Positions 24,100 to 25,782 of a DNA stretch of 64,000 nt are shown piece after piece. The DNA is from Saprospira grandis DSM 2844 (lineage in GTDB: Bacteria; Bacteroidota; Bacteroidia; Chitinophagales; Saprospiraceae). Location: positions 4,678 through 68,677 of the forward strand of contig CAMDAB010000004.1 of NCBI GenBank assembly GCA_945888475.1, read 5' to 3'. The notes below the pieces were generated by a model. The model was given only the letters and a program-made list of their open reading frames with translations. It did not search any database and was not told the DNA's origin. Both the position numbers and the translations under genes were made by a program. Numbering within the stretch: position 1 is the first letter of the stretch; each line of letters begins with the position of its first letter.

Positions 24100-24816
24100 A
24101 TGCTCGACAAAAACGAATTTAAAAAATATGCTGTTAAGCATTTGGGAATGAGCAGTATGCATCTCGATAAATATGCTGAATCATCCACAAAAAATTTCAT
24201 GCCCAATATTCCTCAAATAGGCAACTTCACACCTTATGTTATCGAGGAACGTCAGCTCAATGTAGCTTCAATGGACGTATTTTCTCGCTTAATGATGGAC
24301 AGAATTATATTTTTGGGTGTGGGTATTAACGATTATGTAGCGAATGTTGTTCAAGCTCAATTGCTTTTTTTGGAATCGGTAGATCCTAAGCGTGACATTC
24401 AAATCTTTGTAAACAGCCCCGGCGGATCGGTTATTGCCGGTATGGGTATTTATGACACGATGCAATATGTCAGTCCCGACGTAGCTACTATTTGTACAGG
24501 TTTGGCAGCTTCGATGGGCGCAGTCCTACTTGCAGCCGGACAAAAAGGCAAACGTACCTGTCTACCACACGGACGCGTTATGATTCACCAGCCTCTTGGT
24601 GGAATGCAAGGACAAGTTACCGATATGGAAATCTCATACAAACTCATCAAAGCATTACAGAAAGAGCTTTATGATATCTTATCGAAACACACTGGACAGC
24701 CATACGAAACCATCGAAAAAGACTGTGACCGCGACAACTGGATGATTTCCGAAGATGCTAAAGCCTACGGTCTGGTAGACGAAGTATTGGCACGTAAATC
24801 ACAAAGAAAAGAATAA
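24100..24816 (+). CDS. clpP: ATP-dependent Clp protease proteolytic subunit, copy 1
   Basis: Bacteroidetes-type N-terminal extension (EFKKYAVKHLG). Catalytic Ser (AASMG), His (MIHQPLGG) and Asp (DRDNWM) are all present. Confidence 0.9.
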   Translation: MLDKNEFKKYAVKHLGMSSMHLDKYAESSTKNFMPNIPQIGNFTPYVIEERQLNVASMDVFSRLMMDRIIFLGVGINDYVANVVQAQLLFLESVDPKRDIQIFVNSPGGSVIAGMGIYDTMQYVSPDVATICTGLAASMGAVLLAAGQKGKRTCLPHGRVMIHQPLGGMQGQVTDMEISYKLIKALQKELYDILSKHTGQPYETIEKDCDRDNWMISEDAKAYGLVDEVLARKSQRKE

Positions 24817-25071
24817 TATAATTTGAAGATTCGGTAATCCGATAGCTATCGGATTGATAAATTGAGCACGATTCAGATGATTATTATGAAATGCTTAATT
24901 TCTAATTTCTAATTTCATCTCGTCTGCAAGACGAGACTAACTTCAGACTTCAGACTTCAGACTTCTAATTTCTAATTTCTTACTTCTGATTTCTACTTTC
25001 TAACTTCTACTTTCTGACTTCTTCCCGATAGCTATCGGGATTCTGATTTCAGATTTCTAACTTCCCAATAA
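24817..25071. repeat. Mosaic intergenic element, site 4, between the two clpP copies: palindrome TCCGATAGCTATCGGA, hairpin CTCGTC-tgcaa-GACGAG, about 15 TTC-NNNN heptamers, palindrome CCCGATAGCTATCGGG, and 4 more heptamers
   Basis: Palindrome at 24838-24853; hairpin at 24919-24935; palindrome at 25024-25039. The architecture matches site 6. Confidence 0.8.
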
Positions 25072-25782
25072 ATGTTTGATCAAAACGAATTTAAAAAATA
25101 TGCTGTAAAGCACCATGGTATGAGCTCTATGCACCTCGAAAAATATGCCGAGGCAAGCATGGGAAAATTTATGCCTAACATACCACAGATTGGCAACTTC
25201 ACACCATATGTAATAGAGGAGCGTCAACTGAACGTAGCTTCAATGGACGTATTTTCCAGATTAATGATGGATAGAATCATCTTTATGGGAGTTGGTATTG
25301 ATGATTATGTGGCCAATGTTATACAGGCCCAGCTGCTTTTCCTTGAATCGACCGATCCTAAACGCGACATCCAGATCTTTGTAAACAGCCCTGGCGGCTC
25401 TGTTATTGACGGTATGGGCATTTACGATACGATGCAGTATGTAAGTCCTGATGTGGCAACTATTTGCACTGGTATGGCAGCATCTATGGGTGCAGTGCTA
25501 CTTTGCGCTGGTCACAAAGGCAAACGTACCATTTTGCCACATGGTCGCGTTATGATACATCAGCCCTTGGGTGGTATGCGCGGGCAGGTATCTGATATGG
25601 AAATTGAATACAAACTTATCAAGGAACTCCAAAAAGAGTTATATGATATTCTCTCAAATCATACTGGTCAGAATTATGACACAATTTTCAAAGATTGCGA
25701 TCGCGACAACTGGATGACTGCCGAAGAATCGAAAGCTTATGGGCTGGTGGATGAGGTACTCAACAGAAAATCACCTAAGTAA
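25072..25782 (+). CDS. clpP: ATP-dependent Clp protease proteolytic subunit, copy 2, directly upstream of clpX
   Basis: About 85% amino-acid identity to copy 1. Catalytic triad intact. Confidence 0.9.
   Translation: MFDQNEFKKYAVKHHGMSSMHLEKYAEASMGKFMPNIPQIGNFTPYVIEERQLNVASMDVFSRLMMDRIIFMGVGIDDYVANVIQAQLLFLESTDPKRDIQIFVNSPGGSVIDGMGIYDTMQYVSPDVATICTGMAASMGAVLLCAGHKGKRTILPHGRVMIHQPLGGMRGQVSDMEIEYKLIKELQKELYDILSNHTGQNYDTIFKDCDRDNWMTAEESKAYGLVDEVLNRKSPK

Follow-up and report, generated by a model that had tools for sequence, protein, structure and literature searches.

Gene organization of the clpP-clpP-clpX locus

We analyzed a 64,000-nucleotide stretch of contig CAMDAB010000004.1 from the Saprospiraceae (assembly GCA_945888475.1; hereafter, the window), focusing on two clpP genes, clpPa and clpPb, that are followed by clpX. 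The three genes lie head-to-tail on the same strand, with a repeat-rich spacer between the two clpP genes and a gap of 33 nt between clpPb and clpX (Table 1). An earlier note on this stretch had described two full-length ClpP genes here, and its open reading frame (ORF) coordinates proved exact. The two proteins were 86% identical in a gap-free BLASTP alignment (204/236), and the two genes showed 76.7% nucleotide identity. The arrangement recurs in a metagenome-assembled genome at NCBI (GCA_947485595.1; locus L081) and in an independent ENA assembly (L082); the locus in the window is therefore not an assembly artefact.

Both proteins matched PF00574 (MEROPS S14) from position 6 to 181 of the 182 profile positions (E ~1e-75) and scored 289.5 and 283.9 bits against NCBIfam NF001368, for which the cutoff is 249 bits. 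The closest solved ClpP structures matched them at E ~1e-70, and residues were mapped by gap-free alignment to solved ClpPs including that of E. coli (1TYF; offset 41). The catalytic residues S138, H163, and D212 (E. coli Ser97, His122, and Asp171) were kept in ClpPa and ClpPb, as they were in all two-copy relatives that we looked at. No inactivating substitution was seen in either copy, and the Bacteroides-type model NF011091 matched both from residue 5, thus spanning the N-terminal extension of ~43 residues; the intact triad and the extension attributed to both copies in the earlier note were thereby borne out. Within this extension (residues 1-43; 24100-24228 and 25072-25200 in the window), E6, F7, Y10, A11, H14, M17, Y25, and P38 were invariant in 35 relatives, and its conservation appears to exceed that expected of a disposable propeptide.

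The axial N-terminal loop residues were the same in both proteins, and so was every position aligned to the E. coli residues that we take to form the docking pocket for the IGF loop. No asymmetry of the kind usual in ClpP1P2 systems, in the docking surface, the axial loop, or the catalytic residues, was found between ClpPa and ClpPb; the fixed differences are at other positions (D77, D113, R170, and E179 of the downstream copy). To judge from these residues, ClpX should dock on either copy equally well.

Table 1. Positions of the features described in the text (window coordinates).
Feature	Position	Strand	Description
clpPa	24100..24816	+	ORF, 238 aa; ancestral-type ClpP; N77, A113, Q170, S179
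clpPb	25072..25782	+	ORF, 236 aa; derived ClpP isoform; D77, D113, R170, E179
clpX	25816..27081	+	ORF, 421 aa; ClpX zinc-finger and AAA+ module by profile
Spacer	24817..25071	+	255 bp; belongs to a dispersed mosaic repeat family; module order P1, heptamers, H, heptamers, P2, heptamers
Palindrome P1 (AATCCGATAGCTATCGGATT)	24836..24855	.	20 nt, perfect
TAATTTC x3	24896-24916		Three heptamer units in the spacer
Hairpin H (TCTCGTC-TGCAA-GACGAGA)	24918..24936	+	7-bp stem
About 12 heptamers	24940..25022	+	TTCAGAC, TTCTAAT, and TTCTGAC types; Tandem Repeats Finder period 7, 11.9 copies
Palindrome P2 (TCCCGATAGCTATCGGGA)	25023..25040	.	Followed by a short T-rich heptamer tail
Candidate Bacteroidota-type -7 box (TAAATTTG)	23969..23976	+	Upstream of clpPa; proposed from position
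Inverted repeat ACTGTCTTTTTGTCAGT	23994..24010	+	clpPa leader; near-identical CTGACTTTTTGTCAG in L083, L090, and L091
Mosaic intergenic repeats	7960-8170, 13540-14040, 22330-22625, 28223-28585, 29735-30100		
Mosaic intergenic repeats, further sites	31140-31290, 38880-39000, 40340-40660, 46870-46960		
Hsp100-like ATPase	32054-35371	-	1105 aa; AAA_2 and ClpB_D2-small

Age and distribution of the duplication

The clpP duplication is old and has been stably retained in the Saprospira-Aureispira group of the Saprospiraceae. Between clpPa and clpPb, the proportion of synonymous differences (pS) was 0.74, which corresponds to saturation, the nonsynonymous rate (dN) was 0.108, and dN/dS, which the earlier note had proposed to examine, was at most ~0.04. 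Saturated synonymous sites together with such a low ratio indicate long and strong purifying selection on both genes. In relative-rate tests (236 residues), the downstream copy tended to evolve faster, mostly without significance. The longest identical run between the two genes in the window was 25 nt; there were thus no conversion tracts and no sign of recent gene conversion, and gene conversion between these two copies was rejected on this ground.

The clpP-clpP-clpX arrangement was found in seven lineages, represented by the window with L081 and L082, L083/L084, L090, L091/L092, L085/L086, L095, and L096, and the same divergent Pif1-like helicase gene usually adjoins it. The pair is conserved across these lineages. 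ClpPa identity to the window was 94% in L083/L084, 92% in L090, 87% in L091/L092, and 85% in L085/L086; ClpX identity was 79% in L085, 77% in L095, and 73% in L096 (a partial ClpX, by tblastn). The two-copy loci L095 and L096 are metagenome contigs. Saprospira grandis, Aureispira, and the uncultured L088 and L093 have one clpP ahead of clpX, the last two with the Pif1 synteny. In the wider scans, clpP was single at 80/80 GTDB loci among the matches listed (at most 76% identity), usually followed by clpX, and at 78/80 metagenome loci among the matches listed in the ClpPb scan (at most 80% identity). The GTDB genome scan had suggested a species-specific duplication, an idea that was dropped when the protein collection and contig look-ups yielded closer two-copy relatives.

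In an initial ClpX tree, made before L095 and L096 were added, five two-copy genomes formed a group with 76% bootstrap support, within which ClpX identity to the window went down to 79%, and the node that joins this group to the single-copy L088 and L093 received 81%. After addition of L095 and L096, a six-genome group including L085 received 32% and the group without L085 72%; L095 was placed inside the two-copy group. An ancient, stable duplication in relatives that lack the spacer element, which the note had set against its own view of the locus, is essentially what was observed.

Sequence signature of the downstream copy

Position by position, we compared the downstream copies (n = 12) with the upstream copies (n = 11) and with single-copy relatives (n = 20). 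Asp113 and Glu179 (E. coli mature positions 72 and 138) occurred in all 12 downstream copies from all seven lineages, Asp77 was likewise found in 12/12, and Arg170 in 10/12. The upstream copies had Ala or Ser at position 113 and Ser at position 179, and the single-copy sequences had mostly Ala113 (19/20) and Ser179 (17/20). Asn77 and Gln170 were each present in nine of the 11 upstream copies; among the 20 single-copy sequences, 17 had Asn77 and 18 had Gln170. Among these 43 sequences, no derived position specific to the upstream copy was found. Because the signature residues are fixed downstream, and the upstream and single copies carry the ancestral states, clpPa is the ancestral-type gene and clpPb a derived isoform.

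In a wider set of 123 sequences, comprising the 120 nearest database proteins, the two copies of the window, and the downstream copy of L085, the Asp113/Glu179 pair was present in 12, all of them downstream-copy or b-type sequences, and 104 had the A/S combination at these positions. One protein combining Asp113 with Ser179 (P0100) was set aside as uninformative: its gene, in another lineage, is a lone clpP linked to tig at the end of a contig.

On alignment with E. coli ClpP, residue 113 falls at what we take to be the start of helix C, just past the glycine loop of the oxyanion hole, and residues 170 and 179 presumably lie at the ring-ring interface, in strand 9 and helix E of the handle, respectively. 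An AlphaFold2 model of the ClpPb monomer, built from a low-diversity alignment of 35 sequences, was unusable for placing the residues (pLDDT 47, pTM 0.42).

A rival account of such a pair would be plain dosage or redundancy, with two equivalent copies forming ordinary homo-tetradecamers with ClpX and increasing the supply of ClpP. The 86% identity of the copies, their common triad, axial loop, and pocket-aligned residues, and the strong purifying selection on both agree with it. Redundant duplicates are usually lost, however, yet both copies have been kept in seven lineages despite saturated synonymous divergence, and all 12 downstream sequences bear the same charged substitutions where other ClpPs are conserved, with no derived signature upstream. 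The fixed signature of ClpPb favours specialisation over plain redundancy, and we regard dosage as a doubtful explanation.

Late arrival of the spacer element

The 255-bp spacer was confirmed as a mosaic element whose length and module order are those given in the earlier note, and its last heptamer tail stops a few bases short of the clpPb start codon. The element belongs to a dispersed family. The palindrome CCGATAGCTATCGG occurred seven times in the 64-kb window against 0.04 expected, and hairpin H had seven matches at six sites against none expected, with H-like copies outside the spacer at 8026, 8095, 29837, 38912, and 38961. The 3' two-thirds of the spacer (24897-25065) was paralogous to an element at about 29815-30075, ~5 kb away, with the same order and orientation of modules. 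The predicted RNA fold of the spacer had an energy of -64.5 kcal/mol (z = -3.45 against shuffled controls), and P1 paired with P2 in it.

The spacers of the other two-copy loci measured 3 nt (L095), 31-32 nt (L091/L092), 45 nt (L096), 77 nt (L090), 82 nt (L085/L086), and 214-248 nt (L083/L084). When 94 loci were searched for the palindrome CCGATAGCTATCGG and for the hairpin CTCGTC-N5-GACGAG, only L081 and L082 matched. Relatives whose ClpPa is 97-98% identical to that of the window have the first 22 nt of the spacer in common with it and diverge thereafter, and P1 was absent from the same place in three of them (L175, L176, and L177); several short-read contigs of these relatives end within the spacer. 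No module was found upstream of clpPa or downstream of clpPb.

Because the modules are restricted to the strains of the window and P1 is absent from relatives with 97-98% identical ClpPa, the element came later than the duplication. It entered a once short operon spacer recently, has expanded there, and varies between strains; it did not cause the duplication. The earlier note had left open whether the element mediated the duplication or was inserted afterwards. The second option holds, since the duplication predates the split of the seven lineages, P and H occur only in the strains of the window, and P1 varies among strains. The first would involve a recent duplication by unequal recombination between copies of the mosaic element, as the position of a dispersed repeat exactly at the junction and the equally oriented paralogous copy 5 kb away might suggest. 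It is contradicted by the saturated synonymous sites, by an arrangement common to lineages with 73-79% ClpX identity whose junctions lack P and H modules, by the varying element content of near-identical strains, and by the lack of modules flanking the pair on the outside; we consider it very improbable.

The spacer of L081 (3718-3979) differs from that of the window by one additional TTCAGAC unit and a C>T change in the hairpin loop. Synonymous divergence between the window and L081 was 0.126 for clpPa and 0.028 for clpPb, a contrast that points to a recombination boundary within the spacer or close to it. The 82-bp spacer of L085 (5718-5799) is made up of AGTCAAA/AGTCGAA heptamers that together form a long inverted repeat with a hairpin stem of ~25 bp, and nine TATACTGT units lie upstream of clpPa at the same locus; short tandem repeats in the intergenic DNA of clp genes thus characterise the group as a whole, each lineage having its own sequences. 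Between clpPb and clpX, L083 has a 149-aa ORF without a Pfam match (6659-7108), and the matching stretch in L084 (4702-5160) looks degraded, with no gene called. The clpPb-clpX junction is therefore variable as well.

Predicted expression of the locus

From the Pif1 gene to the end of clpX, the candidate -7 box upstream of clpPa was the only non-coding TAnnTTTG on the plus strand, and none was present in the 33-nt gap between clpPb and clpX. A TAnnTTTG box also lies upstream of clpPa in L083, L090, and L091; in the window as a whole, the motif was not enriched (93 found against 78 expected). A scan for sigma-70 promoters and terminators returned sites no more often than in shuffled sequences, Bacteroidota promoters lying outside its scope. 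Taken with the adjacency of the genes on one strand, the position of the candidate box suggests that clpPa, clpPb, and clpX are probably co-transcribed from one promoter upstream of clpPa. As clpPb and clpX have no recognisable promoter of their own, the spacer element probably permits read-through, and an effect of the element on the ratio of the two isoforms or on mRNA stability is possible.

Downstream of the candidate box, the inverted repeat of the clpPa leader might act in control of the clp operon, as an operator or as a hairpin in the RNA. It is followed by a GGCA(C/T) motif (24022-24026 in the window), which is also found in L083, L090, and L091.

Proposed origin and function of the ClpP pair

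The explanation that we favour, to which we assign a probability of roughly 60%, combines an old tandem duplication, a specialised clpPb, mixed ClpP cores made together and served by ClpX, and a late element. An ancestral clpP was duplicated in tandem, the upstream copy keeping the ancestral state and the downstream copy becoming specialised. The products of clpPa, clpPb, and clpX would be made together from the promoter upstream of clpPa, and both isoforms would join in mixed ClpP 14-mers or in pairs of an a-ring and a b-ring, with ClpX as the ATPase. The charge changes in the handle region might tune ring pairing or activity. The genome-wide repeat entered the short operon spacer later, where transcription would probably pass through it and the isoform ratio might at most be modulated. 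The duplication and its age, the selection on both copies, the signature of ClpPb, and the late element are shown by the sequences; co-transcription, co-assembly, and any influence of the element on expression are inferred. Mixed complexes of ClpPa and ClpPb, suggested in the earlier note, are plausible.

Several points weigh against this explanation. The steps of expression and co-assembly are read from sequence only, and the positions assigned to residues 113, 170, and 179 derive from alignment and an assumed secondary structure. P2 and its T-rich tail were flagged as terminator-like, a class of hits that did not exceed shuffled controls. Homo-oligomers of each isoform would be equally possible, because both copies look equally competent for docking, unlike most characterised ClpP1P2 pairs. 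In the ClpX tree, L096 with its partial ClpX fell outside Saprospira and Aureispira with 52% support, a placement that would require losses in those lineages. Neighbour-joining trees of ClpP were poorly resolved, with bootstrap values of 39-43% for the clade of upstream copies and 31-39% for that of downstream copies, and the pairs of L095 and L096 each clustered within their own genome. Dating the duplication from these trees was dropped because of the low support.

The behaviour of L095 and L096, together with the L085 copies, which did not resolve in the neighbour-joining trees, could instead reflect separate duplications that converged, or a single duplication after which gene conversion continued. 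The identity of the two copies within genomes (83-88%) is also close to the deepest identity among upstream copies (85%). On the other hand, the same four substitutions, always found downstream, and the conserved Pif1-clpP-clpP-clpX synteny make shared ancestry the simplest account, the pair in the window contains no long identical tracts, and no topology is favoured at such low bootstrap values; we regard such histories as unlikely. Given the weakness of the ClpP trees, the argument for a single origin draws mainly on the signature common to the downstream copies, on a gene order that stays constant, and on parsimony in the ClpX tree.

A stronger form of the mixed-core proposal would have ClpPb form the second ring of a heteromeric core, or serve in it as an obligatory co-subunit. 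That core would have evolved independently in the Saprospiraceae, and the pair would still be at an early stage of divergence. Arg170 and Glu179 in the handle and Asp113 beside the oxyanion-hole loop would then enforce or tune pairing between the isoforms, and, as a further step, the strain-variable heptamer arrays might set their stoichiometry. We offer this form only tentatively. If true, it would provide a natural minimal model of ClpP1P2-type evolution.

Hsp100-like ATPase as a possible alternative partner

The earlier note had also proposed that one ClpP copy might serve a different unfoldase, the Hsp100-like ATPase encoded at 32054-35371. This protein has one good D2 AAA+ module; its first P-loop is degenerate (GPEGVGRH), and its ~340 C-terminal residues carry no annotation. 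It falls outside the ClpA, ClpB, and ClpC equivalogs, with a best NCBIfam score of ~300 bits against cutoffs of 993-1232. Twelve of 13 aligned family members carry an [LIVM]-G-F tripeptide (MGF, LGF, VGF, or IGF; MGF in the window), the remaining one, P0239, having TGF, at what we take to be the site of the ClpP-docking loop of ClpA and ClpC. The ATPase may well be a ClpP partner, as this tripeptide suggests.

A division of labour in which ClpPb serves this ATPase and ClpPa serves ClpX would be in keeping with the good D2 module and the docking-type tripeptide. The family is, however, spread through the Saprospiraceae, with a few matches elsewhere, and its full-length orthologues include P0161 (presumably from the single-clpP lineage L088), P0168 of Aureispira anguillae, and one in Flavilitoribacter. 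Since orthologues are thus present in relatives whose clpX-linked clpP is single, the ATPase does not track the duplication. The pocket-aligned positions are moreover the same in both isoforms, and the copy that adjoins clpX is clpPb. The proposal accordingly stood with regard to the loop and not with regard to distribution, and we regard such a switch of partners as quite unlikely.

Mosaic intergenic repeats in the window

The family to which the spacer element belongs is built from a palindrome P (CCCGATAGCTATCGGG), the hairpin H (TCTCGTC-N5-GACGAGA), a third hairpin (GCGCTTCGCGGAAC), and tandem 7-8-mers of the types TTCTAAC, TTCAGAT, GTCTAAW, TATTCGT (19 copies), CTGATGT, CTTGATA, and TGAAAGG. 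The modules occur in varied orders, are confined to intergenic DNA, and often reach the next start codon. In a regular-expression scan of the window, all matches to P, H, and H2 lay inside seven intergenic regions; when arrays consisting of heptamers only were included, modules were present in ~10 of the 28 intergenic regions that are 100 bp or longer, in all gene orientations and in variable combinations. No transposase or binding protein tied to these repeats was identified, though no search aimed at transposases was made. Rfam models over 22300-26000 gave no hit above threshold and one sub-threshold match to a snoRNA, which we attribute to chance.

The repeats turn over between strains. The spacer between the acyltransferase and Pif1 genes measures 247 bp in L081 (1279-1525) and contains a P module, and that in the window (22316-22624) measures 309 bp, with 19 copies of TATTCGT and no P. 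The ClpPa proteins of L081 and the window are identical and the repeats differ at two spacers, which indicates turnover at the strain level. Two ORFs on the plus strand, at 22399-22602 (67 aa) and 22427-22588 (53 aa), are translations of the TATTCGT array (MKSIRYSLFVVRCSLFV...) and should not be annotated as genes.

Comparison with known systems

For the genome represented by the window, the mosaic repeat family may be more unusual than the clpP pair. Its closest counterparts are the bacterial interspersed mosaic elements and repetitive extragenic palindromes (BIME/REP) of enterobacteria, which likewise combine short palindromes with other motifs in a mosaic, intergenic, and many-copied fashion. 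BIME/REP often sit between the genes of an operon, where RNA stem-loops can affect mRNA stability. The modules of the window are unrelated to them in sequence, as judged by eye, and add long heptamer arrays and second and third hairpin types. Intergenic tandem heptamers of the TAACTGA type have been described in Beggiatoaceae, Cyanobacteria, and a few Bacteroidetes (PMC4679880). Like the arrays of the window, they are intergenic, often stop a few nucleotides ahead of a start codon, vary in copy number, and have a patchy phylogenetic spread. The heptamers of the window differ from them in sequence (TTCTAAC, TTCAGAC, GTCTAAW, TATTCGT, and others), in the mixing of types within an array, and in the addition of palindromes. 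The clpPa-clpPb spacer provides a clean natural case in which a fast-moving family of intergenic repeats has invaded an essential operon without breaking it.

Mixed ClpP cores are known from Actinobacteria, Cyanobacteria, Listeria, Chlamydia, and other bacteria, and they matter for proteostasis and as drug targets. In Actinobacteria such as Streptomyces and Mycobacterium, clpP1 and clpP2 lie head-to-tail with clpX adjacent or nearby, and the paralogues are less than ~50% identical and asymmetric in ATPase docking and activity. This arrangement is the closest analogue of the locus in the window, as both consist of a head-to-tail pair whose genes have long been retained. The pair in the window differs in its 86% identity and in having the same pocket-aligned and axial-loop residues in both copies. 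The Saprospiraceae pair is of independent origin in the Bacteroidota; a literature search for ClpP1/ClpP2 paralogues in Bacteroidetes found no paper. A pair that is highly similar yet long kept could show the minimal changes that make a second ClpP isoform worth keeping.

The ClpP core of Streptomyces is a hetero-14-mer (PMC9765437), and heterocomplexes are established in Listeria (PMC9257651), Chlamydia (PMC9823225), and Myxococcus (PMC11423568). Two ClpP isoforms per cell, and several heterocomplexes with altered activity, are reported in these and related systems (PMC9257651, PMC9823225, PMC12900304, PMC11423568). In the ClpP1/ClpP2 pairs of Listeria monocytogenes, Chlamydia, and Pseudomonas and in the two ClpPs of Myxococcus, one of the two isoforms is frequently atypical or needs the other, whereas the genes in the window are adjacent, and their products both look canonical and are set apart by a few fixed charged residues.

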